Shown here: piece after piece, positions 9,492-58,991 of the stretch
Numbering within the stretch: the stretch's first letter is position 1
Layout of the letters: every line of letters begins with the position of its first letter
Virus record (IMG/VR): IMGVR_UViG_3300048599_000435
Span: 1 to 64,000 of that record
Source: a virus
Length of the DNA stretch: 64,000 nt
Reading direction: 5' to 3' (one strand)
Translations under genes and position numbers: made by a program
Notes under the pieces: generated by a model
What the model was told of the DNA's origin: nothing
Databases searched by the model: none
What the model saw: the letters and a program-made list of their open reading frames with translations, nothing else

Positions 9492-9806
9492 GTGGCGGAC
9501 CCAGTGGGTGACGGCGCGGCCGATATCCCCCCGAAGGACTGCTGCTGCGACGCGCCGTTCCCGAGTCCGTGTACGGACGGGTCGCAGTACGTCCAGGTGT
9601 GGCCGTGCGTCGAGGGGGTGAAGGGCGACTGCTCGTGGTTCGACCTGTCGAGCCTGACTTTCGCCCCTACACCGGCAGCGGCGGCGGCCAAGAAGCCGTG
9701 CGGCGGCGGGGCGAACGCCTTCTCGGTGATGCAGGAGGCGGTGGCCAAGGGGTTCGGCCTTGATGACTTGAAGAAACTCGCGGTCACGTTGGACAAGTTG
9801 AAGTAG
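9474..9806 (+). CDS. Cys-rich small protein
   Basis: G/C-rich third codon positions; CCCDAPFPSPC..C..C. Start is uncertain (ATG 9474 or GTG 9492). Confidence 0.5.
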   Translation: MKPADHVADPVGDGAADIPPKDCCCDAPFPSPCTDGSQYVQVWPCVEGVKGDCSWFDLSSLTFAPTPAAAAAKKPCGGGANAFSVMQEAVAKGFGLDDLKKLAVTLDKLK

Positions 9807-9903
9807 TCGATGTCTTGTCCCGCATCGCCGGGTAGCTTATTGTAGCCGACGGAAATGTCGAAAGTCGCGGCCGATTTCCGGTACTGCTTTATAATATTGC
9901 AGA

Positions 9904-11545: not shown

Positions 11546-11561
11546 CAACTGAGAGGTGGAC

Positions 11562-11846
11562 ATGGGCTGGTTCCGTTCGTCGGAAGAGAAGGTCTTGGAC
11601 CGGATTCTCGACTCGTGCGACGACGCGCACTGCGACCACCAGGTCGGGACGACGGTCATGTTCGGCCGTCGGCCGTCGGGGACGATGCGGCAGGTGGTCC
11701 GCGAGCTTCGGGCCGGCGGCATGAGCGTGACGGAAATAATCGCCCTGGTGGTTGCGATTTTCGACCTGATACAGAAAATTGGACCCATCGTCGATGAGAT
11801 CGTTAAGCGAATCAGAGAGCGTCGGCTGGCGAGTTTCGGCGACTGA
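11562..11846 (+). CDS. hypothetical protein
   Basis: ATG at 11562 (GTG at 11556 also possible). Hydrophobic C-terminal helix IIALVVAIFDLI. Confidence 0.5.
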   Translation: MGWFRSSEEKVLDRILDSCDDAHCDHQVGTTVMFGRRPSGTMRQVVRELRAGGMSVTEIIALVVAIFDLIQKIGPIVDEIVKRIRERRLASFGD

Positions 11847-11855
11847 GGTGTGTTA

Positions 11856-11880
11856 CCGGCCGTGCGGGGTAAGTCACGGA
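11856..11880 (+). promoter_or_regulatory. conserved 25-nt motif, copy 2
   Basis: CCGGCCGTGCGGGGTAAGTCACGGA, 23 nt before the ATG at 11904. Confidence 0.5.
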
Positions 11881-11903
11881 CAGTGCCCGATTGCGAGGTG
11901 CCG

Positions 11904-12197
11904 ATGCGGATCCTCGACCTGTGGGCGACGCAGCCGGTGTCGAAGAGGCGGATGCGTCAGTTCGACCTGGGTGTCGAGGACGACGGGTTGCCGCCGGTGC
12001 TGGTGGCCCTGTGTCCGGACGGCGAGTACGAGGTCCGGGACGGGCACCACCGGCTCGCGTACTACCGCCTTCAGGGCAAGGAAAAACTGGACGACGGCGA
12101 GTACTTCGTGATCCACGTTGACGAGTGTCGTCGCCGGCTTGGTCGGATCGACGAGGTGATAGAGTGGAACGGCCTGTTTGAGGCGGTGAAATCCTGA
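11904..12197 (+). CDS. ParB-like nuclease domain protein
   Basis: YEVRDGHHRLAYY core motif of ParB/Srx-type N-terminal domains. Confidence 0.6.
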   Translation: MRILDLWATQPVSKRRMRQFDLGVEDDGLPPVLVALCPDGEYEVRDGHHRLAYYRLQGKEKLDDGEYFVIHVDECRRRLGRIDEVIEWNGLFEAVKS

Positions 12198-12218
12198 CCG
12201 TGCGGGATAAGACACGGA
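12196..12218 (+). promoter_or_regulatory. conserved motif, copy 3
   Basis: GACCGTGCGGGATAAGACACGGA, directly after the stop at 12197. Confidence 0.45.
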
Positions 12219-12283
12219 TAGAGTGGCCCTGCCGGCTGGCGAACCGGAGATGATGGATCGGTCTGAAAACCAAGGAGGTTGGG

Positions 12284-12958: not shown

Positions 12959-12959
12959 C

Positions 12960-12984
12960 CCGGCCGTGCGGGTGAATGCGCGGA
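12960..12984 (+). promoter_or_regulatory. conserved motif, copy 4
   Basis: CCGGCCGTGCGGGTGAATGCGCGGA, 16 nt before the ATG at 13001. The stem keeps pairing through a U-G wobble. Confidence 0.45.
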
Positions 12985-13000
12985 CACCGACTACAAGATC

Positions 13001-15261: not shown

Positions 15262-15264
15262 CTC

Positions 15265-15289
15265 CCGGCCGTGCGGGACAAGACGCGGA
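15265..15289 (+). promoter_or_regulatory. conserved motif, copy 5
   Basis: CCGGCCGTGCGGGACAAGACGCGGA, 18 nt before the ATG at 15308. Confidence 0.45.
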
Positions 15290-15307
15290 AGAATCAGGAG
15301 ACGCGCC

Positions 15308-15664: not shown

Positions 15665-15891
15665 TGCCGACCCTGAAGGTGTACTGTCGGCGGTTCAAGA
15701 CGGGTGTGGCCGACGTGGTGTTCGATGGGGACGCGGAGTCGGAGGCGGGCAAGAACTGGGTCGAGAAGGTAGCGGCGTTCAGGGCGCGAACGGTACGCAG
15801 TATGGGGCCGGCGGCGTATCAGCGGTGGTGGTGTGAGGTGGACGGCGTGCGTCAGGAAACTTCAGAGTCAGACAAGGGAGGTGAGGGGTGA
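15664..15891 (+). CDS. hypothetical protein
   Basis: Its ATG overlaps the upstream TGA. Confidence 0.45.
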   Translation: MPTLKVYCRRFKTGVADVVFDGDAESEAGKNWVEKVAAFRARTVRSMGPAAYQRWWCEVDGVRQETSESDKGGEG

Positions 15892-16706
15892 GCGACGAGA
15901 AAGACGACCTGTGGGACAAGATCGCGGCGTGGCTGGCGGAGCCGTTCGAGCCAAGACAAGTCAAGTGGTTGCCGAAGGTGGTACGGCAGGACAGTGCCCT
16001 CGGTATGCCGTACGTCGATAGCCGGACGGTGATGGACCGGTTGGACGCCGTGCTGGGGATGGAGAACTGGCAGGACAGCTACGACTTCCTGCCGGATCGG
16101 GCGGTGATGTGCCGGCTGGCGGTCCGACTGCCGGGGACGGCCGAGTGGATCACCAAGAGCGACGTGGGCACGGAGAGCGAGCAGCCGGACCAGGGGGACC
16201 GGTCGAAGTCGGCCGTGAGTGACGCCCTGAAGCGGGCGGCCGTTCACTGGGGTGTGGCTCGGTATCTCTACCGCGTTCCCAGCGTGTGGGCCAGGTACGA
16301 TGCGAAGAAGAAGCAGTTCTCCGAGATCCCCCAGTTGCCGGCGTGGGCGTTGCCGGGGTTCGGGGCGAGGAAGGAGGAGTCGAAGGCGGCGTCCAAACCG
16401 GGTGCCACCGGTCAAGCTGGCAACCCAGCGCCACACCCTGTCAGCCCGGCCGAAGGGCAGAAGGCGTACGACCAGTTCGTGCGGCAGATCAAGGCGGTCG
16501 CCGGCGACGCCGAGTGGCAGTCGGTGGCCGGGGCGATCAAGGCGGTGGTTCAGGCGGGCGGCGGCGGCATGACGCCGGCCCACGTCCAGGGCCTGCGGGA
16601 CGCCCTGGCGGCGCGGTGGGACGACATGCACCCGAAGGCGGACGACGAGGTCGGCGAGGACGACTCGGCGGGCGACGGGGACGACGTTTCGGACGTGCCG
16701 TACTAA
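15888..16706 (+). CDS. Rad52/Rad22-type single-strand annealing protein
   Basis: YVDSRTVMDRLDAVLGMENWQ and KSAVSDALKRAAVHWGVARYLY. The GTG start overlaps the upstream stop. Confidence 0.7.
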   Translation: MSDEKDDLWDKIAAWLAEPFEPRQVKWLPKVVRQDSALGMPYVDSRTVMDRLDAVLGMENWQDSYDFLPDRAVMCRLAVRLPGTAEWITKSDVGTESEQPDQGDRSKSAVSDALKRAAVHWGVARYLYRVPSVWARYDAKKKQFSEIPQLPAWALPGFGARKEESKAASKPGATGQAGNPAPHPVSPAEGQKAYDQFVRQIKAVAGDAEWQSVAGAIKAVVQAGGGGMTPAHVQGLRDALAARWDDMHPKADDEVGEDDSAGDGDDVSDVPY

Positions 16707-23965: not shown

Positions 23966-24286
23966 ATGGCCAAAGCGGTGCTGCCCAAGTGTGTGAACGC
24001 CGAGTGCGGTCGGCCGGTGACACTGGACGGCCTCCGGGGACTGTGCGTCCACTGCTACGTCGATCCGGAGATTCGCGACCGGACGGCCGTCCGAGGTCTG
24101 CTGGCGGAGGGGAAGCCGAAGAAGGCGAAGGGGATGAAGAAGCCGAAGCGGAAGGAGAAGCCGCTGCCGCCGCCGACGGACGTGCCGCCGGGGCCGGACC
24201 GGGTGGAGGTGCTGGAGGCCAGGGTGAAGGGCGGGTATGCTTTATGGCACCCGCTGGACGCGACCGGCGACAGCCGGCAGTGGTAG
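23966..24286 (+). CDS. hypothetical zinc-ribbon/basic protein
   Basis: CVNAECG..CVHC followed by a Lys-rich linker. Confidence 0.5.
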   Translation: MAKAVLPKCVNAECGRPVTLDGLRGLCVHCYVDPEIRDRTAVRGLLAEGKPKKAKGMKKPKRKEKPLPPPTDVPPGPDRVEVLEARVKGGYALWHPLDATGDSRQW

Positions 24287-24423
24287 CCGGCCGTGCGGCC
24301 AAAGTCACGGACGCGGGATGTAAGGACCACGAGGCGGTTTTGATTAACCAGGCCGTGCTGGTAAAGTCACGGACGCAATTTGCGATGCATATGTTTTCCA
24401 GGCCGTGCTGGTCAAGACACGGA
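24287..24423 (+). promoter_or_regulatory. three tandem copies of the conserved 25-nt motif
   Basis: Copies at 24287-24311, 24348-24373 and 24398-24423 (GGCCGTGCKGG..AAGWCACGGA). Confidence 0.5.
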
Positions 24424-24439
24424 CCCAGGAGATGATGCC

Positions 24440-27699: not shown

Positions 27700-28058
27700 G
27701 CCGGGCCAGGAAGTTGCACGCTCGGTCGAGTGAGATTCCTCTTGTCATGCCGGTGAAGTTGCAAGCCAGGATCATGAAGGTCGTGGCAAAACGGTCTCTC
27801 TCACTCCGTCGCAACTCATTCTGGAGACCGAGACTGCGTTTCTTGGTGCTGAAGTGCGGTGACGTGCAGTTCGTGATTGAAGGAACTTCGGAGGTGGTCA
27901 ATTTCTCTCCCGTTTCGATTTGTCGTGAGTGTGGAGTCGATGTGCCGCTCAAATCGGGAACGCCGATCGGGATCGTCTGCGACTACCTGGCGGACAACGG
28001 ACACTTCGGGTCTGTCCTGCATGAACTGCTGATGCTGATCCGCGACAGCCAGAATTAG
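27696..28058 (+). CDS. hypothetical protein (lower-GC gene)
   Basis: 120-aa ORF with an ATGA overlap upstream. GC is visibly lower than in the flanks. Confidence 0.5.
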   Translation: MSRARKLHARSSEIPLVMPVKLQARIMKVVAKRSLSLRRNSFWRPRLRFLVLKCGDVQFVIEGTSEVVNFSPVSICRECGVDVPLKSGTPIGIVCDYLADNGHFGSVLHELLMLIRDSQN

Positions 28059-28114
28059 TCCGGCGTGGGGGTTAGAGTGGTCTGACTGCTCCGACCCCCG
28101 ACGAGGTTGACGAC

Positions 28115-28486
28115 ATGGGCCTCAAGACCGGCACGCTGGGTTCCGCGACGGATGCCGTCACGCTCCAGAAACCGAGTACAGATTCGTTCTGCCTCGTCAC
28201 CGTCACCGGCACGTTCACCGGGCTGGCGTTCACCGTCGAGGGGGCGATCGGTTCTGGCACCGATACTCCCAGCGCCTACGCCCCCGTCAGTTTTGTCAAC
28301 AGAGCGCTGTTCGCCCGTGACGTTGACGACGCCCTGTCCTCGCTGTCCACCTCGCAGACGCTGGAGATCAACGGGTCCGGCCTGAAATGGCTTCGGGTTC
28401 GCGCCACGGCCTGGTCCAGCGGGACGGCCGACGTGACCATCTACTCGGACGACGTGACCCCGCTGACGCAGCTTGGTGGCGGCTAA
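28115..28486 (+). CDS. hypothetical protein
   Basis: 123 aa, Thr/Ser/Gly-rich. Last gene of the plus-strand block. Confidence 0.5.
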   Translation: MGLKTGTLGSATDAVTLQKPSTDSFCLVTVTGTFTGLAFTVEGAIGSGTDTPSAYAPVSFVNRALFARDVDDALSSLSTSQTLEINGSGLKWLRVRATAWSSGTADVTIYSDDVTPLTQLGGG

Positions 28487-28505
28487 CCCGCGAACGTGCT
28501 GCCCA

Positions 28506-28532
28506 GTGCCAGTCTTTTCCTGCTGGCCCAGG
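28506..28532 (-). repeat. solitary CRISPR-repeat unit (SRU-a)
   Basis: 27 nt identical to the hairpin-containing 3' part of the array repeat, in the same orientation as the array. Confidence 0.6.
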
Positions 28533-28581
28533 AATCACCGGCCGGTCTCGCCTACCGATTGGCGGGATCGGCTTTCTGTCG

Positions 28582-29343
28582 TTACCGCAATGCCGCGTAC
28601 TCCATCGCCATTCGCAGGTCGCCATCCACTCGCCTGTAGACCTCGTCGTCCAGTTCTCGCTGGGTTGGTGTCGGCCGCTCGAACAGGTCGCCCCAGATCT
28701 CGGGCGGCAGTTCTTCCAATGAACAATTCCTGGTCGGAAATACGATAAATAGGTCAGCGAGTCTGTGGTCAGTAATCCTAATGTCCGTCGGCCGCATGGG
28801 CCACGAAACGTAGACGGGCGAGTCCGGCTCGTTCCACCGGCCGACGTGGAACGTCAGTTCCACATGCCTGTCTTCGTCTGTGGAGTACAGCGGCACCGGT
28901 TGCTGCACTTTGTACGGGCACACGATGGTGGTTTCGAGATCGCGAGACTCCGGGCGACGGAACACGACGAATGGTTCTCTTCGGTGCCGTCCGTCCATCT
29001 CTCTTGGCACGCACCTGACCTGCGGGAACAGGCGACCGGACGAACCTTTCAATCGGGAAAACTCAGGCGTATTCAGAGCGATAGCAGCCACACCAATCGG
29101 CGTCAGGTGTTTCAGTGATTGCTGTAGATTACCGGCGAATGCGTTGTTGAACGGGTGGAAGCTGACGAAGCGTGAGCGGATCATGCTCTTGGCCGTCTCG
29201 GTGTCTTCCGCCTTTCGCAGGCATTCGGCGAACGCCTCGTAGCCTTCCTCTTGGAAGTAGTCGGCGGCCACGAGCCAGGTCAGTCGGTTCGGGTTCTGGT
29301 CGATGCCGCGCAGCCACGACCGGATGTTGCTGTGGTCGATCAC
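28582..29343 (-). CDS. hypothetical protein with TIGR02996-like N-terminus
   Basis: LTWLVAADYFQEEGYE. GTGA overlap with the upstream gene. Confidence 0.55.
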   Translation of the reverse strand: MIDHSNIRSWLRGIDQNPNRLTWLVAADYFQEEGYEAFAECLRKAEDTETAKSMIRSRFVSFHPFNNAFAGNLQQSLKHLTPIGVAAIALNTPEFSRLKGSSGRLFPQVRCVPREMDGRHRREPFVVFRRPESRDLETTIVCPYKVQQPVPLYSTDEDRHVELTFHVGRWNEPDSPVYVSWPMRPTDIRITDHRLADLFIVFPTRNCSLEELPPEIWGDLFERPTPTQRELDDEVYRRVDGDLRMAMEYAALR

Positions 29344-29726
29344 TGGTGGCCCTCGGCGTCTGTCTTCATTTCAGCCATCGCCTCGTCCCGCTGGCGAACT
29401 CGAAAGGCAACGGCTTTGGCGAACATTTCGTCGACTCGCCGTCTGGTTTCGGGGCCACGGGTGGCGGAACCGGCCATGATTTCCAGTTTGGCGGACTCGA
29501 TTCCTTCTAGGACTGACACGGCCTGTTTGTATCGGTCCTCGGCCGGCCACTTGGCCATCAGTTCGTAGCGGAACCTGGTCGCCTCTTGCATGTCGGTCAG
29601 GTCCATCTGCATTCCCAGTCGGCAGAACCCGTCTTCGGTTTCCGGATCGTCGTCTCTGCCGGCCAAATCGTTGGCCATCGAGATTTCTATCAGTCGCTTG
29701 TACTCGTCCATTTGCTCTTGGGTCAC
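29340..29726 (-). CDS. hypothetical protein
   Basis: 128 aa, acidic, with an RBS-like GAGGG upstream. Confidence 0.5.
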   Translation of the reverse strand: MTQEQMDEYKRLIEISMANDLAGRDDDPETEDGFCRLGMQMDLTDMQEATRFRYELMAKWPAEDRYKQAVSVLEGIESAKLEIMAGSATRGPETRRRVDEMFAKAVAFRVRQRDEAMAEMKTDAEGHQ

Positions 29727-29735
29727 TGGTGGCCC

Positions 29736-30122
29736 TCATGCGGCGAAGATGTCGTCGAGGTCTGGGTTGTGTCGGTCGTCGCCGCTGGCGGGCACTTTCA
29801 GGACCGCGTCGGCCTCGGCGACAATGCGTTCCACGGCCCGGCGGGAGCACGTCCGGATCTGGTCCTTGTCGTCGGCCCCGACGAGCATGGCGGCGAGCAG
29901 GGCCGGCTCCAGGTCGATGCCGGCGGCGAACCAGCCGTCGCCCAGGTCGAGCCAGCCGTCCCACCACGCCGGCAGCGGTCGGGCAATCACATCCGCCGGA
30001 ATGCGGGCGTCGTGCCGGCACTGGCCGGGCCGGAACGGCTCGCGGTGCATCAGCCCGGCTAGAACCGGCACCCCGTCCTCGATTAACTGGTAAACCACGG
30101 CGATTGCCGGTCGGTCATCCAT
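29736..30122 (-). CDS. hypothetical protein
   Basis: 128-aa ORF of balanced composition. Confidence 0.5.
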   Translation of the reverse strand: MDDRPAIAVVYQLIEDGVPVLAGLMHREPFRPGQCRHDARIPADVIARPLPAWWDGWLDLGDGWFAAGIDLEPALLAAMLVGADDKDQIRTCSRRAVERIVAEADAVLKVPASGDDRHNPDLDDIFAA

Positions 30123-30125
30123 TGT

Positions 30126-30332
30126 CTACTCTCCGTTCTTGACGACGGGAATGATGCACGCCAGCCGGCTCTGGGTGCCGGTGACGTGGTCCGGCTCCTC
30201 GATGATTCCGTGGTGCAGGTCCAAGACCACGTCGTACAGTTCCTCGCCGATCTTGACCTTCACCGGCGTATCGCCGCCGATGTAGATGCGGCGGGCGAGT
30301 TCCTGGATCAGTTCGGTCGTTTTCATCGTCAT
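30126..30332 (-). CDS. hypothetical protein
   Basis: 68 aa; ATGA overlap with the upstream gene. Confidence 0.5.
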   Translation of the reverse strand: MTMKTTELIQELARRIYIGGDTPVKVKIGEELYDVVLDLHHGIIEEPDHVTGTQSRLACIIPVVKNGE

Positions 30333-30616
30333 GCCTTTCCTCCAGTTCTTTCGGCGTGCAGCCGGTCGGCCACGGCCCCGACGGCGGCGACCAAGGCGGA
30401 CACGTCGATGTCCAGCACGCGGGCCGTCTCCGCCAGCACGGTGGCCGGCGGCACCCGCTGTCCGAGGTAGTACCGGTTGACCGTGTTCACGGGCCGGCCG
30501 ATCCGCCGGGCCACCCGGTAGGCGGTCGTGTCCCGGTCGGCCATCAGGCGGCCGACGACGGTGCCGAACGCCTCGGCCCAGTCGCGGTCCCGGTCGTCGC
30601 TGCCGTCACGCACCAT
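30329..30616 (-). CDS. XRE-family HTH transcriptional regulator
   Basis: Trimmed to the ATG at 30616, after GGAGG. TTAYRVARRIGRPVNTVNRYYLGQRVP HTH. Confidence 0.65.
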   Translation of the reverse strand: MVRDGSDDRDRDWAEAFGTVVGRLMADRDTTAYRVARRIGRPVNTVNRYYLGQRVPPATVLAETARVLDIDVSALVAAVGAVADRLHAERTGGKA

Positions 30617-31769
30617 CTCGGTCACCTCCGGGCGGCCGGGCCAGCGCCTTGAAGGCGTAGCACAGGTCGCCACTGAACACGCCGATCGAGTCGGGGGCCG
30701 CCGCGTCGACGGCCAGTTCGACCAACCCGCCACCGAACTCGGCCGCCGCCCCGGTCACGTCTCGTAGGACGTCACCGGCGACCGCGAACGGCCGGCACTC
30801 GCCGTCGCACGGGACGTCGGCCGTCGTCTCCCCGTCGTCGCCGACCCCGGTCAGCGCCAGCCGGCCGCCGCCGACCCGCACCTCCATGCGGGCCACCCTC
30901 CTGTCCATCGCCAAGGCCGCCATCTTCACCGCCCGCGACAGGCCGGCGGCGTCGGCCACGAACCGGTTCGGCAGCGGCGAGACGGCCCGCAGCACCTGGG
31001 CGAACGGCGGCGGCCGGCTGGCACTGACCGGGCACCGGACCCACCACCCGTCGCCGTCGAGTCGCGCCCCGCAGGTGTACCCGTCGGGGCCGGCCAGGAC
31101 GCGGACGGCTACCGGCCCGGCGTCCAGGAAGGACATCATCAGGTCCGCCGCCGAGGCCGGGACCGGGGCCGCCAGTTGCGGGCCGTCGAACCGGGCCGCC
31201 ACGGCGAACACCTTCTTGTCCGTCGCCGCCGCCATCAGCCGGCCGGGGCCGCCGTCGTCGTCCGGGGTGGCGAACAGGACGACCGCCGCCGCGTGCATGG
31301 CCGACAGGTTCTCTTCAGTCCACACCCCGCAGGCCAGGCCGGTCGCCCCGATCAGCCGCCGGACGGTCGCCGCGTCCGTCGTCACCGTCGCCCGCACCCG
31401 GTCGTCGGCCGGCCACCGCCACGGGTGGGAGTCCGGGTCGAAGGCGGTTTTCGCCCGGTACGCCGGCGTGGTGTTCATTGCCGGCAGGCCGCCCAGGCAC
31501 GTCACCTCGACTCGGCCGAGCCGGGTCTCCTTGACGCACGCCACCGCGTCCTTGGAGAGCAGTGTGACGCCGCCCTCGCCGATGTCGGCCGGCACGGTCA
31601 GGCCGACCGTCGCCTCGGCCGAGCCGGCGACCAGTTCCACCGCCCCGGCCGCCGCGTCGGCCCGCACCAGCACCCGGCCCAGGACCGGGTTGACGGGCCG
31701 CGCCGGCAACGCCTTGGCGGCCAGCGCCAGCGCGGCGGCGAACGCCTTCCTGTCTATCTCGAACCTCAT
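30606..31769 (-). CDS. DNA polymerase III beta sliding-clamp-like protein
   Basis: Trimmed to MRFEIDRKAFAAALALAAKALPARPVNPVLGRVLVRA, a DnaN-like N-terminal pattern; 387 aa. Confidence 0.55.
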   Translation of the reverse strand: MRFEIDRKAFAAALALAAKALPARPVNPVLGRVLVRADAAAGAVELVAGSAEATVGLTVPADIGEGGVTLLSKDAVACVKETRLGRVEVTCLGGLPAMNTTPAYRAKTAFDPDSHPWRWPADDRVRATVTTDAATVRRLIGATGLACGVWTEENLSAMHAAAVVLFATPDDDGGPGRLMAAATDKKVFAVAARFDGPQLAAPVPASAADLMMSFLDAGPVAVRVLAGPDGYTCGARLDGDGWWVRCPVSASRPPPFAQVLRAVSPLPNRFVADAAGLSRAVKMAALAMDRRVARMEVRVGGGRLALTGVGDDGETTADVPCDGECRPFAVAGDVLRDVTGAAAEFGGGLVELAVDAAAPDSIGVFSGDLCYAFKALARPPGGDRDGA

Positions 31770-32530
31770 ACCGTTCCTCGCTGTGCTAGCAACTTCGACG
31801 CCCACCTGATCGCCGCCCGTGACAGATCCCACTCCGCGTCGGCCCGACTGGGGTACGAGTACCCGTGTTGTATGTGAGTGCCGGCTTGAAGCTCGGCGTG
31901 CAACTCTCTGGGTATGTACCGGCCGCCGTACTCGCTGTCCGCCCACCACCACTCGAATCCTGGGCCACGATGCTGTCTTCTCTGGTACAGCGTCGTCGGG
32001 TTGCAGTCGGCGAATTCCACGGTCTCCACCGGCTGGTGCCACACCAGTGCTGCCGCCATCGGCGGAACCTTGCCAGTCCCCTGGCAGTTCCAGCACCTGT
32101 GGCCGTCGGCCAGACTGCCCATGTACTTCTGCCCGTTGCACACCGGGCAAGTTTCGCCGATCCACTGGCGACACGTCGTCCGCACCTTGCTCACGAACCC
32201 GCGATCCCAGTAGCAAATCGTACCTTCCCGGTTTGGCGTCGGCGTCATTCCCACGCTGGAACACCGCCAGCCGCCTCGCGAATCATCCGTCAGGTACGGC
32301 ACTCGCAACTCGGTAACGACCACTTCGGCCAACTCGTGCATTCTGCACAGCAGTTTCTTCTCTCGACTGCCGGCCCCGTACTCGACGCCGAGTCGGATCC
32401 ACTCCGCGTATTCCGCCTTGCCGTTCTCTTCCAGGTAGTCGGCCGTCACTAGCCGGTGCAGGTCGGACCTCGGGTTGTCCCGCATCCCCCGCAGGAGGGC
32501 CTGATACCCGTCGCTGTCCCACACGCTCAC
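31766..32530 (-). CDS. TIGR02996 domain-containing protein (family paralog)
   Basis: GTGA-coupled start. HRLVTADYLEENGKAEYAEWIRL, RGFVSKVRTTCRQW, CPVCNG and CWNCQGTG. Confidence 0.7.
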   Translation of the reverse strand: MSVWDSDGYQALLRGMRDNPRSDLHRLVTADYLEENGKAEYAEWIRLGVEYGAGSREKKLLCRMHELAEVVVTELRVPYLTDDSRGGWRCSSVGMTPTPNREGTICYWDRGFVSKVRTTCRQWIGETCPVCNGQKYMGSLADGHRCWNCQGTGKVPPMAAALVWHQPVETVEFADCNPTTLYQRRQHRGPGFEWWWADSEYGGRYIPRELHAELQAGTHIQHGYSYPSRADAEWDLSRAAIRWASKLLAQRGTV

Positions 32531-33303
32531 GCGACATCCTCCGGCGGGTCCAGCCACTCGTCGGCGCTCTCGCGGATCACGGCCCAGTCGCCGATCTCGT
32601 CGCCAGACCAATCCACGTCGTCCAGGTCAACCCACTCCGCCTCACCGAACGGCTTGCCGATTTCTTCGCACGCCTGTTGTGGTCTGCCGAACAGGTGCGA
32701 CAGCAGTCCGCGATACGCCTCGGGCACGTTGTCCGGCTCGTCCTGCTCGTCCGGATCGTCCGACCAGTAAGTGTACCTTTCCATCCGCCGTAATCGGTTC
32801 ACGAGATCGGTGGCGAACACCCGCCAGTCGGTGTGGCACTGTGGGCCTTTCTCCCAATCGCCGTCCTCCCAGTACTGCATCGACCCGTCGGCGAACAGGA
32901 TGATCTGCTTGGTGTCGTGGTTGCCGAACGTCTCGGTCGAGGACGGGTTCAGGACGTCGACTTCCAGTTCCGAGTAGCACCACGAGCAGACCGCGTCCGG
33001 CACCAGGTCGCACGCATCCAGTCGCTCCCGGTCCCAGTCGCTGGGCAGCAGTTCGGCCAGCGACACCTTGAGGCCGAAGCCGGGTATGTACTCACGCCAT
33101 AGGCTCCGCAGCCGATCCGGCGTCACGGCCGTCCCCGCCGCCAGTCGTTCAAGTTCGAACTTGGCCAGCCCGACCGTCCGGCACCGCTCGGCCATCCGCT
33201 CCTCGCCGGCCTCCTGTAAGGCGTCGGCCAGGACCAGTCGAACGGCGTCGTTTTCGAGCGTGGCGGCGGCCAGCACCCGCACGTCTTCCGGCACGTCCGT
33301 CAT
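32527..33303 (-). CDS. hypothetical acidic protein
   Basis: Trimmed to the ATG at 33303; the track's N-terminal 111 aa are a translation of the CRISPR array. Confidence 0.6.
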   Translation of the reverse strand: MTDVPEDVRVLAAATLENDAVRLVLADALQEAGEERMAERCRTVGLAKFELERLAAGTAVTPDRLRSLWREYIPGFGLKVSLAELLPSDWDRERLDACDLVPDAVCSWCYSELEVDVLNPSSTETFGNHDTKQIILFADGSMQYWEDGDWEKGPQCHTDWRVFATDLVNRLRRMERYTYWSDDPDEQDEPDNVPEAYRGLLSHLFGRPQQACEEIGKPFGEAEWVDLDDVDWSGDEIGDWAVIRESADEWLDPPEDVA

Positions 33304-33371
33304 GGTGTCCTCCAGATACAGTTTATCACTGACCGTGTGGGCCGCAAGGTCGATAAAGCCTTCCAGTCGGG

Positions 33372-33848
33372 GTGCCAGTCTTTTCCTGCTGGCCCAGGTT
33401 GTTTGATACGCACGTGAGCCTCGGCACCCCGCCGAACTCGTCCGTGTGCCAGTCTTTTCCTGCTGGCCCAGGTTGTTTGACATGTCGGCGGGTGTCGGGA
33501 CGGTGGATATCGGGCCGGGGTGCCAGTCTTTTCCTGCTGGCCCAGGTTGTTTGATTGCGGCGCGTGAGCGTGGCCCAGTTGCCACCCAGGGCGTGCCAGT
33601 CTTTACCTGCTGGCCCAGGTTATTTGACGGTGTCACTTGGCACCGCCATTTTCGAGCCAGCGGTTGTGCCAGTCTTTTCCTGCCGGCCCAGGTTGTTTGA
33701 CGACTAGTGTCAGTAGCCCAGTGGCGTGGGCCAAGTCGCGTGCCAGTCTTTTCCTGCTGGCCCAGGCTGTTTGATGCTCAGGTTGTTTGACGTCGGTCTT
33801 GCGGATTCTGGGGGTGCCAGTATTTTCCTGCTGGCCCAGGTTGTTTGA
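33372..33848 (-). CRISPR. CRISPR array, 7 repeats (35-36 nt) with 38-39-nt spacers
   Basis: Repeats start at 33372, 33446, 33520, 33593, 33666, 33740 and 33814. Minus-strand repeat is TCAAACAACCTGGGCCAGCAGGAAAAGACTGGCAC, with a 3' hairpin GCCAG-N10-CTGGC. Confidence 0.85.
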
Positions 33849-33873
33849 TAGCAAAGGTCATAAACTATTACTG

Positions 33874-35703
33874 CTACACACTTTGCGGTATCGTCTGCGA
33901 GAGGGTCGCCTTCCGCCTCGGCTTGAGCAACGTCTTCTTCGGCTTCTTTTTCGTAACCGCTTGCCCAGCCTGGTCGTCAGGCGGGCGAGTGGGGTCGTCG
34001 GTATCGCCGTCATCGGGCCGCTCGGCGAGCATGGTCAGCAGGTTCAGGGCGGCGTTCTCGTCCTGATCCCACTCCGCGCCGCACGCCGTGCAGGTGTGGG
34101 TCAGGCGGCTGCGGTCGAACGTCTGGTCGGACCAGCAGGCGTGGCACCGGGAGGTGGTGCCGTGCGGGGCGAACTCGGCGACCGGGCAGCGGCCGTTCAT
34201 CCGCAGGCATTGTAGGAGCAGGCCGACGGCCGCCGCCCGCATGTACTCCTTCCTCGCCCGCGTCGGGTTGTCCTCTTCCGGCCGGTCGTCCCTGGCCATC
34301 CGGGCGACGGCCAGTTTCTCCACCGCCAGCCGGCCGTACCGACCGCCCATCTCGGCGGCGAACTTGCGGTAGACGTCCAGCCGGCGACGGATCGCCCGCC
34401 GGCCGCACGACACGAACGCCATCTCCAGTCGCACGTCCGCGTCCCGCCACTCCAGTAACTCGTTGTGGCGTGGCGCGATGTCGGCATCTTGTCCCGTGCC
34501 GTCGGGCGTCGTCAGTTCGTCCCACCGGGTCAACAGCGTGTGCAGCCGGTTGTACCCGCGCCACTGGCGGACAGTGGTGGTTGCCTCAAGGAACGCCTCC
34601 GGCAGCGACTCTCGCGAAGCGTCGATCCAGTCGGCCAGCCGGTCCCGCTCGGCGTTGAACAGCCGGTCCCGCTCGGCCTGGGCCTCCTCGCGGCGGGTCC
34701 ACAGGGCGAGCAGGTCGGGCGGCAGTGTCAGTTCGCCCCGGCCGCCCCGGTCGTCGGCCCAGCAGGCGACCCGGAGCGAGCCGTCCGGCCGCAGCCGCCA
34801 GCCGACGTCGATCCCGCACTTGCCGTCCTTGTCCTCGACGGGTCGGTCCGGCACGGAGACGACGAACTGGACTGACCAGTCGTCGTAGGCGGTCGGCGGC
34901 TCGTCCCGCCGCTTGCGGGTGTGCCACCCCTGCCGGCGAACCAGGTGTACCCACTTGACGGTGCCGCCTTCGGGCAGCGGCCGGTGCGCCTTCACCCGCA
35001 GCGTCGTCCAGACCGGACGCCCCCGGTCGGACGCCAGCCGCAGGTGAACCAGTTTGACGTTCGGGTGGCCGGGGATCGACTCGATCCGGACGCGGGTGTC
35101 CTCGCCGGCGTACACGTCGGCGGCCGACAGGCCGTTCTGGATCTGGGCGGACAGTCGGCCGTCGCGGTCCCAGCGGCGGAAGCGGACGGGGCCGAACGGT
35201 GTGGATGATGCCGCCCGTTCGGCCGCTTCGGCGAGGGCCAGCTTGGTCCCCCACCAGACGGCCGAGGCGTTGTACGCGGCCTTCTGCCGGGCGAAGTGGG
35301 CGGCCGTCTCGGCCTTCTGAGCGGCCTTCCATGCCGGCGTGGCGTGCAGGGCCTTCATGGCGGCCGACCGGGCCGCGTAGGCCAGTTTCAGTTTTGCCCT
35401 GGCGTCGAGGACGGCCATGCGGAGGTCTTCCGACGCCACCTCGGCCCGCTCGCGGCCCTTGTACGCCTGCACCTCGGCGACGGCCGCGTCCCGTTCGGCT
35501 TCCAGTCGGGACACGACCGCGTCGGCCTCGGCCAGTTCCGGCGACATGGCCCGGCGGATCGCGTCCAGGTTGGCCCGCTTCAGGTTCTCCAGTTCGACCA
35601 GCCCGTTGTAGTACCGGTGGGCCGAGTACATCCAGTCAGCCAGCCGCCGCTCTTGGTCGGCCGACATCCGATAGACGTGAAATGCGAACACTTTGGTAGG
35701 CAC
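33874..35703 (-). CDS. TnpB/Cas12-like RuvC nuclease (compact type V effector candidate, 609 aa)
   Basis: RuvC-I KCGIDVGWR, RuvC-II RLAVEKL, zinc finger CHAC..CTAC, RuvC-III DQDENAALNLL. TnpB-like N-terminus FAFHVYRMSADQERRL..YYNGLVE. The array starts 25 nt after its stop. Confidence 0.8.
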   Translation of the reverse strand: MPTKVFAFHVYRMSADQERRLADWMYSAHRYYNGLVELENLKRANLDAIRRAMSPELAEADAVVSRLEAERDAAVAEVQAYKGRERAEVASEDLRMAVLDARAKLKLAYAARSAAMKALHATPAWKAAQKAETAAHFARQKAAYNASAVWWGTKLALAEAAERAASSTPFGPVRFRRWDRDGRLSAQIQNGLSAADVYAGEDTRVRIESIPGHPNVKLVHLRLASDRGRPVWTTLRVKAHRPLPEGGTVKWVHLVRRQGWHTRKRRDEPPTAYDDWSVQFVVSVPDRPVEDKDGKCGIDVGWRLRPDGSLRVACWADDRGGRGELTLPPDLLALWTRREEAQAERDRLFNAERDRLADWIDASRESLPEAFLEATTTVRQWRGYNRLHTLLTRWDELTTPDGTGQDADIAPRHNELLEWRDADVRLEMAFVSCGRRAIRRRLDVYRKFAAEMGGRYGRLAVEKLAVARMARDDRPEEDNPTRARKEYMRAAAVGLLLQCLRMNGRCPVAEFAPHGTTSRCHACWSDQTFDRSRLTHTCTACGAEWDQDENAALNLLTMLAERPDDGDTDDPTRPPDDQAGQAVTKKKPKKTLLKPRRKATLSQTIPQSV

Positions 35704-35737
35704 TGGTTGATCCTTTGACTGGTGGCTGTGGATGCAG

Positions 35738-35762
35738 TCCGTGTCTTGCCCCGCACGGCCGG
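35738..35762 (-). promoter_or_regulatory. conserved 25-nt motif, copy in the cas12-like leader
   Basis: CCGGCCGTGCGGGGCAAGACACGGA, 34 nt before the GTG at 35703. Confidence 0.5.
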
Positions 35763-35789
35763 GTGTGTCAGCGGACCGGCACCAGATGA

Positions 35790-35887
35790 GTGCCAGTCTT
35801 TACCTGCTGGCCCAGGCTGTTCTGCCCTGGACGTGTGTCCGACCCACGGCACTTGCCGGTCTTCACCTGCCGGCCCAGGTGTCTTTA
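35790..35887 (-). CRISPR. promoter-proximal mini-array (2 degenerate repeats, one 28-nt spacer)
   Basis: Repeats at 35853-35887 and 35790-35824. The upstream one keeps the hairpin through a compensatory A-T to G-C change. Confidence 0.55.
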
Positions 35888-35892
35888 GCTGT

Positions 35893-35920
35893 ATTATACA
35901 CGTCTCCAATCGGGATGCAA
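35893..35920 (-). promoter_or_regulatory. sigma70-like promoter P1 (drives the mini-array, the cas12-like gene and the array)
   Basis: TTGCAT-CCCGATTGGAGACGTG-TATAAT with a 16-nt spacer. Confidence 0.6.
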
Positions 35921-35968
35921 GTCAAATGTCGTCACATTCACCCGGCACGTCGCCCCTGGACGAGCGTG

Positions 35969-36487
35969 TCATTGGTCGTCCCCGGCCGTGGTCATCGCGA
36001 TGGCGATCAGCCGCCGCTGGGCCGCCGGTCGCCTCATGACGGCGGCGAGCAATTGTTCCAGGGTTGCGGCGGCGAGTTTGGCGTCGGCGGTCTCGGTGGT
36101 CATGGCCTCGTCGAGGATCTGCTTGGCTCGCTGCTTGCTGACGCCCAGGGTGGCGGCCAGGTCGGCCCCGCACCCGCCGGCGGCGGCCACGGCGGCGACG
36201 GCCGCCTTCCGCCTGTCGGGGTCGAACCACCCCCGGCGGCGGTGACGGCTACAGGCCGGGTTCTCGCACAGCCGGCGGGTCTTATTCCTGTCGAACGCCT
36301 TCAGTTTGGCGGGCGTGACGAGGCCGACCTGGTCGGCGTGGCAGGTGTCACACCGGACGGCCCACAGGTATGAGCCGACGTCGCTCCTCTCGGCCGTCGG
36401 CCCGATCAGGGTGTACCCGCCGATCGACTTGCCCCGGTAGGTTTCCGTCGTGTACGGGCCGGTCAGGTGCCCCTTGGTGCGTCCCAT
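35969..36487 (-). CDS. putative DNA-binding protein
   Basis: CENPACSRH zinc-like motif plus an HTH-like ATLGVSKQRAKQILDEA. Confidence 0.5.
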   Translation of the reverse strand: MGRTKGHLTGPYTTETYRGKSIGGYTLIGPTAERSDVGSYLWAVRCDTCHADQVGLVTPAKLKAFDRNKTRRLCENPACSRHRRRGWFDPDRRKAAVAAVAAAGGCGADLAATLGVSKQRAKQILDEAMTTETADAKLAAATLEQLLAAVMRRPAAQRRLIAIAMTTAGDDQ

Positions 36488-36667
36488 TCAGTCGGCCCTC
36501 CCCGGTTCTACTTCGGTGTACAGTTTGAACCACACCACGTTCCCCGTCTCGTCCCGGCACTCGGCCTCTTTCTTGCCCTTCCGCAGCACGGTCCACAGGT
36601 TCTTGTCGCCGGGCCGGCGGAAGGTGTCGTTCTTTTTTAGGTCGGCCAGCGTCTTCACGGATGTCAT
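36488..36667 (-). CDS. hypothetical protein (59 aa, not in ORF track)
   Basis: MTSVKTLADLKKNDTFRRPGDKNLW... with G/C-rich third codon positions. ATGA overlap upstream, and its TGA abuts the next ATG. Confidence 0.5.
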   Translation of the reverse strand: MTSVKTLADLKKNDTFRRPGDKNLWTVLRKGKKEAECRDETGNVVWFKLYTEVEPGRAD

Positions 36668-38256: not shown

Positions 38257-38381
38257 CACTTGTCCCCCACGAGTTTGTTGACCGCATCGGTCAGGAATGG
38301 GCTGTGCTGTTCACAGCACGCCTGTTGCTCGTGCCGGTATTGACCTGCTGGCCCAGGCCGTGGAGTACGATCCTGATTCAT
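38256..38381 (-). CDS. 41-aa micro-ORF containing a CRISPR-repeat-like sequence
   Basis: Starts 2 nt after the upstream stop and ends overlapping the next start. Its RPGPAGQY stretch is encoded by the repeat-like unit. Confidence 0.3.
   Translation of the reverse strand: MNQDRTPRPGPAGQYRHEQQACCEQHSPFLTDAVNKLVGDK
38331..38364 (-). repeat. degenerate solitary CRISPR-repeat unit (SRU-b)
   Basis: Plus-strand GTGCCgGTatTgaCCTGCTGGCCCAGGccGTgGA compared with the array repeat. Confidence 0.5.
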
Positions 38382-41200: not shown

Positions 41201-41367
41201 CACTTGGCACCCCCGATGAGCAGGATGTAGGCGGCGATGGCGAGCAGGCCGACAAGGTTAAGGACGGCGTACCAGTCTTGTCCTGCTGGCCCAGGTTGTT
41301 CGATGACTGTGGCACTCACGGCCGGGTGCGGCCGGTCCTCGAAGTCGGGCAGGTCTTCGTCTTGCAT
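41200..41367 (-). CDS. 55-aa membrane micro-protein containing a CRISPR-repeat-like sequence
   Basis: ATG lies 8 nt after GGAGG. C-terminal transmembrane helix VLNLVGLLAIAAYILLIGG. Its EQPGPAGQDWY stretch is encoded by the repeat-like unit. Confidence 0.35.
   Translation of the reverse strand: MQDEDLPDFEDRPHPAVSATVIEQPGPAGQDWYAVLNLVGLLAIAAYILLIGGAK
41269..41303 (-). repeat. solitary CRISPR-repeat unit (SRU-c)
   Basis: Plus-strand GTaCCAGTCTTgTCCTGCTGGCCCAGGTTGTTcGA: 32 of 35 positions match the array repeat. Confidence 0.55.
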
Positions 41368-44836: not shown

Positions 44837-44899
44837 TGGTCGTCCCTCGGATGGTTGGCGTCTTTTGTCGGTCTTGCCCGGCCGACTCCGGGTGTGGGT

Positions 44900-53983: not shown

Positions 53984-54340
53984 GGCAGTGCACTCCGGAA
54001 GGGTAGGTAGGTCAGAACAGAGCTATCCGCCCCGGAATCGCACCGGGGAAAGCGTGTGGCCGTTCGCAGCAATGCCGGATAGTGTGGCCGTCTGTCGAAC
54101 GGCCGGGATGATTTGGGTAGCCTTGTCCGGTTAGGCTACGAACCGTTCCCCATCCAATCGAGCCGGGGACTAGCTCAGCCGAGTTGTCAAAGATCGGTGA
54201 ACCCCGCGTCACTGCCGGGGAGCGGTCCCATTCACGCAAGGGACGGGCAGGGCACTTACGGCACCCACACGGGCGGATCAAAGCTACCGCCATACTGTCG
54301 TTGCACCAACACGGCATCCCCAACAGGCAGGACACCGAAA

Positions 54341-54365
54341 GGCCGGCGGGCGGAATCGAACCGCC
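54341..54365 (-). other. tRNA-like 3' fragment (T-arm plus acceptor 3' strand)
   Basis: Minus strand reads GGCGG-TTCGATT-CCGCC-CGCCGGC-C. No 5' acceptor partner was found. Confidence 0.3.
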
Positions 54366-54388
54366 TACCCACTACCGGTCAGCCGGAA

Positions 54389-54619
54389 TCATCCATCATA
54401 CGGGGCGAAACTAGGAACCGCCATGAACGTGTGGCCCATGTGCTTTTCGATGTACGCCTCAACCTCATGCGATTCGTCCACCGTGAACGTCGCACGGTCG
54501 GAGATGTGACGCGACAGCCGCCAAAACGTCGGCCCGTTGCTCCGGGCGATAACGTACACGCATTCGCTGCCACCACGCTCATACACGTCGATGATCATCC
54601 GAAGGCTGCTTTCTTCCAT
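54389..54619 (-). CDS. hypothetical protein
   Basis: Trimmed to MEESSLRMIIDVYERGG. Confidence 0.45.
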   Translation of the reverse strand: MEESSLRMIIDVYERGGSECVYVIARSNGPTFWRLSRHISDRATFTVDESHEVEAYIEKHMGHTFMAVPSFAPYDG

Positions 54620-54699
54620 CGCTGGCACTCCGAAGGGGTGAAGGAACCGCAAGCAGATACGGATGTCCGCTCGCACCACCGAACTTGAACCGTACTATC

Positions 54700-54727
54700 A
54701 CCTTATCACATCCCAAATGGGACGCAA
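54700..54727 (-). promoter_or_regulatory. weaker promoter P7 of the same family
   Basis: TTGCGT-CCCATTTGGGATGTGA-TAAGGT. Confidence 0.35.
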
Positions 54728-54737
54728 GGTGAAGGGA

Positions 54738-54902
54738 TCAATCAACCGTCGAGAGGAAAGAGTAACGGATGAAACGGCGGAACCATGCGGTTTGCTGACG
54801 GTACTGACGGGTAAAGGAACAGAGGTCGGAACAGTGGTTCCAGGAAACGGAACGGAAAGCAACGGTGAGGTCATGGGTGAGGAAGTCAGTGGCGATGGTC
54901 AT
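54738..54902 (-). CDS. 54-aa ORF (not in ORF track)
   Basis: ATG after AGGGA. C-ending codons are preferred over those of the overlapping plus-strand ORF 54663..54938. Confidence 0.35.
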   Translation of the reverse strand: MTIATDFLTHDLTVAFRSVSWNHCSDLCSFTRQYRQQTAWFRRFIRYSFLSTVD

Positions 54903-54953
54903 GGACGTGTCCCTTGTGTGTTGTCGTGTGGCGTGTGACGCATCGACACCGTT

Positions 54954-54981
54954 AATCTAACAGGTCCACACCGGGAGTCAA
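54954..54981 (-). promoter_or_regulatory. sigma70-like promoter P8
   Basis: TTGACT-CCCGGTGTGGACCTGT-TAGATT. Confidence 0.5.
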
Positions 54982-55171
54982 GGCAACCGTTCTGATTCTG
55001 GCCATGCCCGCCTAGCTTGGCCGGACTAGGGGAGGGAACGCGCCTGCGTGCGTACCCGCCTAGTGGCCTCCGCATGTCCGGAACCTGGACGTCGGCACCT
55101 GACGCTCCTGCCTGGTTTCCCTGCGCCCATTTCGCCGACAGGGAGAAGGTCGAGGGAGGGGACCAGTCCCA

Positions 55172-55247
55172 CTCTCTATTTTGCAAAAGTTTTTACATAT
55201 GACCTATACCAGTCTCCCTCTCTATTTTGCAAAAAATTTAGCATATG
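55172..55247. repeat. two direct ~30-nt AT-rich repeats, each containing the palindrome TTTTGCAAAA
   Basis: CTCTCTATTTTGCAAAAgtTTTtaCATATG at 55172 and CTCTCTATTTTGCAAAAaaTTTagCATATG at 55218, 46 nt apart. Confidence 0.5.
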
Positions 55248-55438
55248 GCTGGCAACCATCATGACATGGGGTTGCCACCAGATCGCATAGGATTGCGTCT
55301 GATGCGTTTTGGGCTAAATGAGGCGTGGAGTCCACATGGCACTGAGATCGTGCACTGGAGGTCAAGCCATGCGACGTGGCGTAACTTGTTTGGCGTGCTA
55401 GTTTTGCGGGAAGCGTTTAGCGGTCATTTGGCTGACGG

Positions 55439-58804: not shown

Positions 58805-58991
58805 CACGCCTCCAGTCCTCGGAACACGCTCTCGTGCCAGTGTTAGCCTGCCGGCCTAGGCTTTCCGACCGCCACTTCCGTCTCGCCATGTGCCACCGCA
58901 TAGCGCTGGCGAACCACTCCCACCGGCCGCCAAACTCGCCCAGGCGATCCGCAAGAACGCAACCACCGAAAGTGACGGCCGGACGGCTCAT
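58794..58991 (-). pseudogene. truncated paralog of the C-terminal domain of 61725..62405
   Basis: LADRLGEFGGRWEWFASAMRWHM aligns with LADRLDEVGEKWKWVSYAFRWCM. The reading frame then runs into SRU-d. Confidence 0.3.
58834..58866 (-). repeat. degenerate solitary CRISPR-repeat unit (SRU-d)
   Basis: Plus-strand GTGCCAGTgTTagCCTGCcGGCCtAGGcTTTcc. The hairpin is kept with one G-U pair. Confidence 0.45.

Follow-up and report, generated by a model that had tools for sequence, protein, structure and literature searches.

The point at which the plus- and minus-strand gene blocks of this phage converge carries a 27-nt element at 28506-28532 on the minus strand, and our analysis showed that selection maintains this element as a copy of the Cas12m crRNA scaffold. 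The initial annotation had presented it as a solitary repeat; it turned out to be one of about 16 units dispersed through the window, i.e., the whole stretch of 64,000 nucleotides that was analyzed. Our sequence-based analysis points to a possible further role of the phage's Cas12m, a DNA-binding enzyme, on transcripts of the phage itself. The convergence point is made up of the following features:

28115..28486, plus strand: conserved 123-aa gene, beta-sandwich with YomS/XepA-like fold, 71-84% identity in six other lineages
28487..28505, minus strand: 19-nt flanking 'guide' (TGGGCAGCACGTTCGCGGG), intergenic, from the unit to the stop of 28115-28486, not conserved among lineages
28506..28532, minus strand: solitary repeat unit, 27-nt Cas12m crRNA scaffold, identical to the array consensus, covariance model score 35.4 bits
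28540..28573, plus strand: hairpin of 13 bp, then TTCTGTCGTT; intrinsic terminator of the 123-aa gene
28582..29343, minus strand: last gene of the minus-strand operon, non-homologous to the gene at that position in relatives

In plus-strand coordinates the unit reads GTGCCAGTCTTTTCCTGCTGGCCCAGG and is identical at 27 of 27 positions to the consensus core of the array repeats (33372, 33446, 33520, and 33740); none was expected by chance (expectation 0 in 100 dinucleotide shuffles), and the lone array-repeat copy in array orientation that had been noted initially is thus real. It lies on the minus strand, 4.8 kb from the array and outside it. Read on the minus strand, the array repeat consists of GTCAAACAA followed by CCTGGGCCAGCAGGAAAAGACTGGCAC. 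The convergence unit comprises only the 27-nt 3' part, the 9 nt on its 5' side (CCGGTGATT) being unrelated to the repeat. Within these 27 nt the pseudoknot is present, with stem I (CCT/AGG), stem II (GCCAG/CTGGC), and the 3' AC. As a near-identical copy of the cognate array repeat that lies outside the array and has kept the effector-binding scaffold, the element qualifies as a solitary repeat unit. The A-rich 5' flank (..AACAA) of the array repeats and of most other units is missing at the convergence unit of the window, and cutting there may therefore be poor.

The unit is separated by 49 nt, which are filled by the hairpin, from the TAA (28582-28584) of the last minus-strand gene and by 19 nt from the TAA of the plus-strand gene 28115-28486, and the distances to both flanking stops given in the initial annotation were correct. 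The unit does not itself have the GC-rich hairpin with U tract of an intrinsic terminator: the sequence after it is TGGGCAGC on the minus strand and, on the plus strand, AATCACC. The neighboring hairpin does qualify as an intrinsic terminator on the plus strand. Its z value is -2.8 on the plus strand, where it has 13 pairs and a tail rich in T, versus -0.35 on the minus strand, where three G.U pairs turn into mismatches and weaken the structure. Judging by the bias and the T-rich tail, the hairpin serves above all as terminator for the 123-aa gene, and the plus-strand bias recurs in the related lineage L014. The convergence unit accordingly sits antisense inside the 3' untranslated region of the 123-aa gene, and RNA from the cas strand reaches it by read-through. 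In L003, a syntenic JGI contig, the hairpin upstream of the unit is a perfect 20-bp stem, which may stop most cas-strand transcripts short of the unit. As to the function of the 123-aa protein, the YomS/XepA-like beta-sandwich fold was all that was obtained, with no mechanistic lead.

The array and its effector are encoded upstream on the same strand:

33372..33849, minus strand: CRISPR array, 7 repeats of 36 nt, period 73-74
33874..35703, minus strand: cas12m, 609 aa, GTG start, RuvC motifs D-E-D
35737..35879, minus strand: three scaffold-like units (35853-79, 35790-816, 35737-63) forming the 5' leader of cas12m
35893..35920, minus strand: promoter TTGCAT-N16-TATAAT, 13 nt upstream of the first cas12m-leader unit

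The ORF 33874-35703 matched Cas12u1 in PADLOC (1e-72), PDB entry 23vw ("DNA-binding protein Cas12m"; 5e-39, residues 18-558), and the Cas12m2 structures 8hio/8hhl; TnpB matches were also listed. The Cas12-like enzyme proposed initially was thus borne out and, judged by homology, is specifically a Cas12m of type V-M, a family of non-cutting DNA-binding effectors. In line with this type, the Cas12m-homologous effector has an adjacent array, whose repeats begin 24 nt downstream of cas12m, and the repeat ends at its 3' side in a stem-plus-pseudoknot scaffold. The pseudoknot is supported by covariation and agrees with the published architecture (PMC10442227). Cas12m enzymes bind DNA without cleaving it, at sites flanked by a T- or C-rich PAM (PMC11013384; PAM also PMC10442227), including published D-E-D enzymes, which still leave dsDNA uncut (PMC11013384), and silence via DNA binding (PMC11013384, PMC10442227). 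They work with a single crRNA and no tracrRNA (PMC11013384) and mature their pre-crRNA by a cut upstream of the scaffold, the exact site and mechanism of which is not settled in these two studies (PMC11013384, PMC10442227). In the structure, the scaffold forms a stem and a pseudoknot, no order is seen at repeat positions -36 to -30 (the 5' 7 nt), and the guide-target heteroduplex spans 17 bp (PMC10442227). The disorder of the 5' repeat nucleotides indicates that the 27 nt kept in the convergence unit are the protein-bound part.

Several further observations were made around this locus. Promoters of the TTGCAT-N16-TATAAT-like family occur on the minus strand of the window at 35920, 43822, 48560, 51684, 53026, 53693, and 54727, and in L003 at 12379. 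Their spacer opens with a conserved CCCG...GGG palindrome, which may be an operator common to early promoters. The flank 35713-35736, on the 3' side of unit 35737-35763, opens with TGCATCC, the -35 box core of this family; the match covers 7 nt only and is a weak lead to autoregulation or early-promoter targeting. One array spacer (33776-33813) is irregular, in that its 22 nt of unique sequence run into the truncated start of a repeat (GTCAAACAACCTGAGC). The stretch 54000-56000, beside the cluster of early-type promoters, has a GC content of 0.57 versus about 0.65 elsewhere and few confident ORFs, and is possibly a regulatory or origin region.

Absence or lack of conservation in relatives, which the initial annotation had named as a result that would refute it, was looked for in relatives of the 123-aa gene obtained by protein search (a search of IMG/VR for the gene gave none), and the unit withstood this check. 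In 7 of 7 lineages carrying the gene a unit is present on the opposite strand, 14-21 nt past the stop (19 nt in the window, 15 nt in L023, 19 nt in L027, 14 nt in L018, 21 nt in L003, 20 nt in L025, and 19 nt in L014). The sequence of these 14-21 nt is not conserved among the lineages: between L014 and L027, for example, the guide is identical at 13 of 19 positions and the unit at 25 of 27. The cas-strand gene adjoining the unit is also non-homologous between lineages, and the 123-aa gene is the fixed partner. The Cas12m of L003 is 57% identical to that of the window, and its array repeat (GTCACACAA followed by CCTCGTGGCGTAGGTCAACACGCCAAC) differs from the window's; its convergence point carries a copy of L003's own repeat with 1 mismatch. 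L023, the closest relative, has the window-type repeat and the remaining lineages have the L003 type. Wherever the array is known (window, L003, and the terminal repeat of L014), the convergence unit corresponds to the lineage's own repeat. Between the two repeat types, 4 of the 5 pairs of stem II are compensatory, with both sides changed, and the G.U pairs in the units of L023 and L018 form only on the cas strand. The unit was seen in independent assemblies from JGI, Logan, and ENA. Several Logan contigs end in or just past the convergence unit (L018-L022, L025, L026) or at the first array repeat (L014-L016), and breaks at repeats of at least 31 nt are expected of a k=31 assembly; L020 is a palindromic assembly artefact centered on the hairpin.

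Units elsewhere were sought by scans that allowed mismatches, by a descriptor of the structure, and by a covariance model. With a threshold of 21 bits, the latter picked out 23 units in the window, of which 7 belong to the array and 16 are dispersed (about 16-17 outside the array); the next site scored 16.8 bits and noise lay at 15 or below. By sequence search, extra copies were found at 35790 (1 mismatch), 41269 (2), 38331 (4), and 35853 and 58834 (5 each). Outside the array, the convergence point, and the cas12m leader, the listed units are:

9806..9832, minus strand: second-class unit (other stem II), the sole unit off-strand to its block
11855..11881, plus strand: second-class unit, 8 nt past the stop of 11556-11846
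12193..12219, plus strand: second-class unit at a gene boundary
12959..12985, plus strand: second-class unit, starting right after TGA 12958 and finishing 15 nt ahead of ATG 13001
15264..15290, plus strand: second-class unit, 17 nt ahead of ATG 15308
16398..16424, plus strand: second-class unit-like sequence within ORF 15888-16706
24348..24424, plus strand: two tandem second-class units (24348-74, 24398-424), 15 nt ahead of a conserved small gene (ATG 24440)
34480..34506, minus strand: unit-like sequence within the cas12m coding region, 33.2 bits
38331..38357, minus strand: array-type unit, 4 mismatches, intergenic
41269..41295, minus strand: array-type unit, 2 mismatches, within a 63-codon ORF
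44865..44891, minus strand: weaker unit, 16.8 bits, 28 nt ahead of ATG 44836
58834..58860, minus strand: unit with 5 mismatches, stem held by G.U

All but one of the 16 dispersed units lie on the sense strand of their own operon, and most of them between genes. Plus-strand units all occur in the plus gene block and minus-strand units in the minus block, 9806 excepted. Several begin 0-8 nt past a stop or finish 15-33 nt ahead of a start, as does 35737 at 33 nt. Second-class units have the stems CCGTG/CACGG and share geometry, loop, and 3' AC with the array type. Relatives carry equivalent unit classes at homologous places, and the position before the small gene upstream of thyX is kept in the window, L014, and L018. 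Across 34 distinct units, 99.3% of the pseudoknot cells are paired, a percentage that is inflated as about 9 of the units came from the descriptor that requires pairing, and double changes occur at 6 of 8 pairs; the covariation score was 0.715 versus 0.19 for shuffled and at most 0.16 for slid alignments. The comparison between the repeat types is independent of the pairing descriptor. In the window, no Rfam family reached its gathering score. The idea that every unit follows a hairpin was rejected: upstream folding energy is not unusual overall, and the association is restricted to the convergence units and a few others.

Some units form peculiar local arrangements. A third, weaker second-class unit at 24286-24312 (plus strand) precedes the tandem pair, so that 24286-24424 holds three tandem units with periods of ~61 and 50 nt, a cluster resembling a mini-array ahead of the conserved 52-53-codon gene upstream of thyX. 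In L003, 13181-13281 is a two-unit mini-array just ahead of a DnaN-like gene, and its single 'spacer' is a GC-rich hairpin (GCGCACGCC..GGCGTGCGC); L014 retains one unit (13485) at this spot. The units within ORFs (34480-34506, 41269-41295, 16398-16424, 38331-38357; L003 15252; L014 10872) share one frame, P-x-G-x-G-Q-(D). They retain the rare codons GGA and CAA, also within cas12m, suggesting selection on the nucleic acid and not on the protein.

A similar organization was found in a 176-kb phage from IMG/VR whose Cas12m is only 31% identical. This phage has a repeat of its own, with two arrays and five or more solitary units. At a convergence point there is one unit per converging transcript, each after a terminator hairpin, and the two units share one 40-bp spacer. 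The second array of this phage has 6 repeats of a variant type (L007 3647-4057 / L011), and several of its solitary units (L012 1489, 3529, 4859; L007 4518) are preceded by a common hairpin, CCGCCCGTACGGGCGG. One spacer of this phage, when searched in IMG/VR, gave self matches only.

To account for these findings, we tentatively favor the view that the units are Cas12m recognition and processing sites on operon RNA and that the junction unit captures transcripts reading through the opposing terminator. On this account the units would act in cis and on RNA. Minus-strand transcripts that pass the hairpin 28540-28573, which is weak on that strand, would arrive at the unit, where Cas12m would bind and cut. 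After the cut, the operon mRNA would have a defined 3' end closed by a hairpin, and the RNA beyond it, which would otherwise lie antisense to the 123-aa gene, would be freed. The freed piece would stay on Cas12m as a short crRNA-like RNA with a guide of roughly 17-20 nt, which could not bind its own locus for want of a PAM. The flanking 'spacer' would then be a by-product, which would explain its free drift. Several points count for this reading: the unit matches the array repeat of a Cas12m beyond chance, keeps its place in 7 of 7 lineages, and co-varies with the lineage's own repeat; the pseudoknot is supported by covariation, and the G.U pairs of L023 and L018 form on the cas strand only; the guide drifts; the hairpin is stronger on the plus strand; the kept scaffold is the ordered part only, repeat nucleotides -36 to -30 being disordered in Cas12m; the units form a family on the sense strand at gene boundaries; the distant phage shows a hairpin-then-unit layout at a convergence point; and there is a precedent in a phage type V system, in which a single repeat with 18 nt yields a crRNA (10.64898/2026.04.20.719267). 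Against it count the 20-bp stem of L003, the missing A-rich 5' flank, and the restriction of the hairpin to a few units; in addition, what stays constant beside the unit is the 123-aa gene, on the opposite strand, which would fit a role in the 3' untranslated region of that gene. Of the initial annotation's suggestion that the hairpin or unit ends the minus-strand operon as a site of processing or termination, the processing part hence survives as the reading that we tentatively prefer, while the strong adjoining hairpin is mainly the terminator of the opposing gene. A broader and rather unlikely version is that Cas12m would be a genome-wide regulator of the phage's own expression, with the ~16 units at conserved gene boundaries providing self-templated guides or handles to cut, cap, or sequester RNA or to roadblock DNA, and the convergence unit serving as an insulator.

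Alternatively, the unit may give rise to a trans-acting crRNA-like RNA whose guide (TGGGCAGCACGTTCGCG) would send Cas12m to matching or partly matching DNA elsewhere and silence it, with possible sites in the host, in the part of the phage outside the window, or in a competitor, and with the crlRNAs of other CRISPR types as a model. Cas12m does silence by DNA binding (PMC11013384, PMC10442227), solitary units beside cas12a and mini-arrays with regulatory guides are known, a single repeat gives a working crRNA in the phage type V system cited above, and the units upstream of cas12m in the window and L003 occupy the classic autoregulatory position. However, no second target with up to 3 mismatches was found in the 64-kb window for 13 guides (7 array repeats and 6 dispersed units), and none that was convincing in related loci, a search confined to phage sequence and covering all but ~46 kb of this genome. 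Likewise, in the window and related loci no pseudo-spacer matching a promoter next to a PAM was found. Each of the seven lineages keeps the unit but has a different convergence guide, which argues against a conserved target in trans. Overall, we consider this explanation unlikely. The initial annotation had also taken the adjoining spacer to be antisense to the 3' end of gene 28115-28486; this applies from nt 20 onward, but the first 19 nt, roughly the 17 nt paired by Cas12m, are intergenic. One candidate match of the convergence guide, nt 11-25 (GTTCGCGGGTTAGCC; window 28496-28482), was rejected since its 15 of 15 identities include no seed and lie within chance after multiple testing; the matching sequence is the start of the 248-aa gene after the array (L003 12444-12458, L014 14231-14245). 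Among the array spacers, 33702-33739 (guide GCGACTTGGCCCACGCC...) matches L003 8894-8917 at 22 of 24 positions and at 16 of the first 17; the matched site is a second-class scaffold unit with the flank CTG. By this match, one phage appears to target an element that its relative carries in multiple copies, with CTG as a candidate PAM.

It is less likely still that the unit acts as a self-templated DNA roadblock, i.e., that its RNA returns Cas12m to the adjacent DNA and blocks polymerase from both directions, as an insulator at the junction and as an attenuator at intercistronic units. This would account for the unconserved guide, since guide and target are one DNA, for the 14-21-nt gap to the stop, about one 17-bp footprint, and for the inverted pair with a single 40-bp spacer in the distant phage, and self-binding would be non-lethal because Cas12m leaves DNA uncut (PMC11013384). 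However, the PAM position would be taken by the repeat's own 3' end (CAC, AAC, or GAC), whereas known Cas12m PAMs are T- or C-rich and the sole candidate protospacer here is flanked by CTG. If Cas12m accepted the repeat end as a PAM, it would also bind every spacer of the array itself.

A role of the plus strand, in which the scaffold complement in the 3' untranslated region of the 123-aa gene would act as an anti-repeat to the crRNA or pre-crRNA or as a plain untranslated structure, appears very unlikely. The unit is tied to the 123-aa stop in 7 of 7 lineages while the cas-strand neighbor varies, and as the adjacent hairpin is the terminator of this gene, the plus-strand mRNA must hold the 27-nt complement. 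On the plus strand, however, the G.U pairs of L023 and L018 become A.C mismatches. Moreover, the other dispersed units are sense to their own operon (9806 excepted), the boundary of the unit is that of the protein-bound scaffold and not of the whole repeat, and Cas12m systems have no tracrRNA (PMC11013384).

We consider it equally doubtful that the units are decoys which soak up Cas12m, be it the phage's own, the host's, or that of a rival with this repeat, and thereby tune or block the effector as Racr does. Solitary phage units act in this way in other systems (PMC10651486; Cracr preprint), and there are many copies per genome. Yet in three repeat families the units match the phage's own array. 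Neither repeat type was found in an array in any bacterial genome among 185,579 sequenced species, and decoys have no need of conserved positions at gene boundaries. The convergence unit also differs from Racr in that its repeat is the phage's own and in that no promoter-like site of its own was found in 28000-36600, the span that contains it. The window repeat was absent from the viral, metagenome, and genome collections and the L003 repeat from metagenome contigs; a megablast of 27-37 kb against a phage database gave no match. The lone genome match of the L003-type repeat, in Chitinibacter tainanensis (L024 5693-5715), lies in a tail-fibre-like coding region (..GGAGQNAN..) and is probably due to chance; its motif is QQGGGAGQNANKIYLGW, and the repeat in frame 1 translates to a similar G-x-G-Q peptide.

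That the unit is a neutral remnant or chance sequence, such as an orphan repeat decayed after recombination with the array, would fit the missing 5' 9 nt but is negligible in view of the 27/27 match with 0 expected, the equivalent place in seven lineages with diverged flanks, the co-variation with the array repeat, and the independent JGI, Logan, and ENA assemblies.

The units share properties with several known systems. crlRNAs, CreR/CreA, and the solitary units adjacent to cas12a also consist of a near-identical repeat outside the array in which the effector-binding part is kept, and here, as there, copies lie directly upstream of the effector gene. However, crlRNA-type units reside within the cas locus and have a pseudo-spacer that partly matches a promoter, whereas those described here are scattered across 49 kb or more of a phage genome, in sense orientation in both operon blocks, and one of them lies at the operon convergence. 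Racr (PMC10651486) and viral Cracr RNAs are likewise phage-carried solitary repeat units, but they mimic host repeats and hijack host Cas proteins, while here, in three repeat families, it is the phage's own Cas12m array that the units match. The mini-arrays borne by viruses in inter-virus conflict resemble the present array in being carried by a phage without nearby adaptation genes; the convergence unit differs from them in having no second repeat and a flank that matches only itself. Compact phage Cas12 enzymes with a small array, as found here, are known as Cas-phi, Cas-lambda, LalCas12r, which makes a crRNA from one repeat and 18 nt (10.64898/2026.04.20.719267), and MvCas12m, a 610-aa Cas12m of myxophage MV-1 (2026 preprint). 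Dispersed scaffold units are described in none of these reports, and the words 'solitary' and 'mini-array' are absent from the MV-1 preprint. Identity of the window Cas12m with MvCas12m was rejected, as the RuvC residues are D299/E462/D548 versus D305/E463/D555.

Two further comparisons concern the layout. In engineered designs, a Cas12a repeat is placed after an RNA-stabilizing structure in the 3' untranslated region of an mRNA, and Csy4/Cas6 sites are used to cut operon RNA. These designs share with the phage units the order of gene, stable 3' structure, repeat, and guide as well as the nuclease sites between cistrons, but they are synthetic, and a natural equivalent would be new. In the TnpB omega-RNA, the guide is the DNA flanking the scaffold, and Cas12m is a close TnpB derivative. 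Unlike in the omega-RNA system, there are no transposon ends and no TnpA here, and the scaffold comprises only 27 nt.

The roles known for solitary CRISPR repeats are those of local cas regulators or of phage decoys against host systems (decoys: PMC10651486), and dispersed, positionally conserved units for a phage's own effector appear to be undescribed. They raise the question of what role self-flanked solitary repeats have beside an effector unable to cut DNA. Should the units turn out to be Cas12m substrates, the phage would provide a natural example of a CRISPR effector that processes or insulates a virus's own transcripts, and the compact natural design of gene, hairpin, and 27-nt handle would be of interest for multiplexed expression tools.
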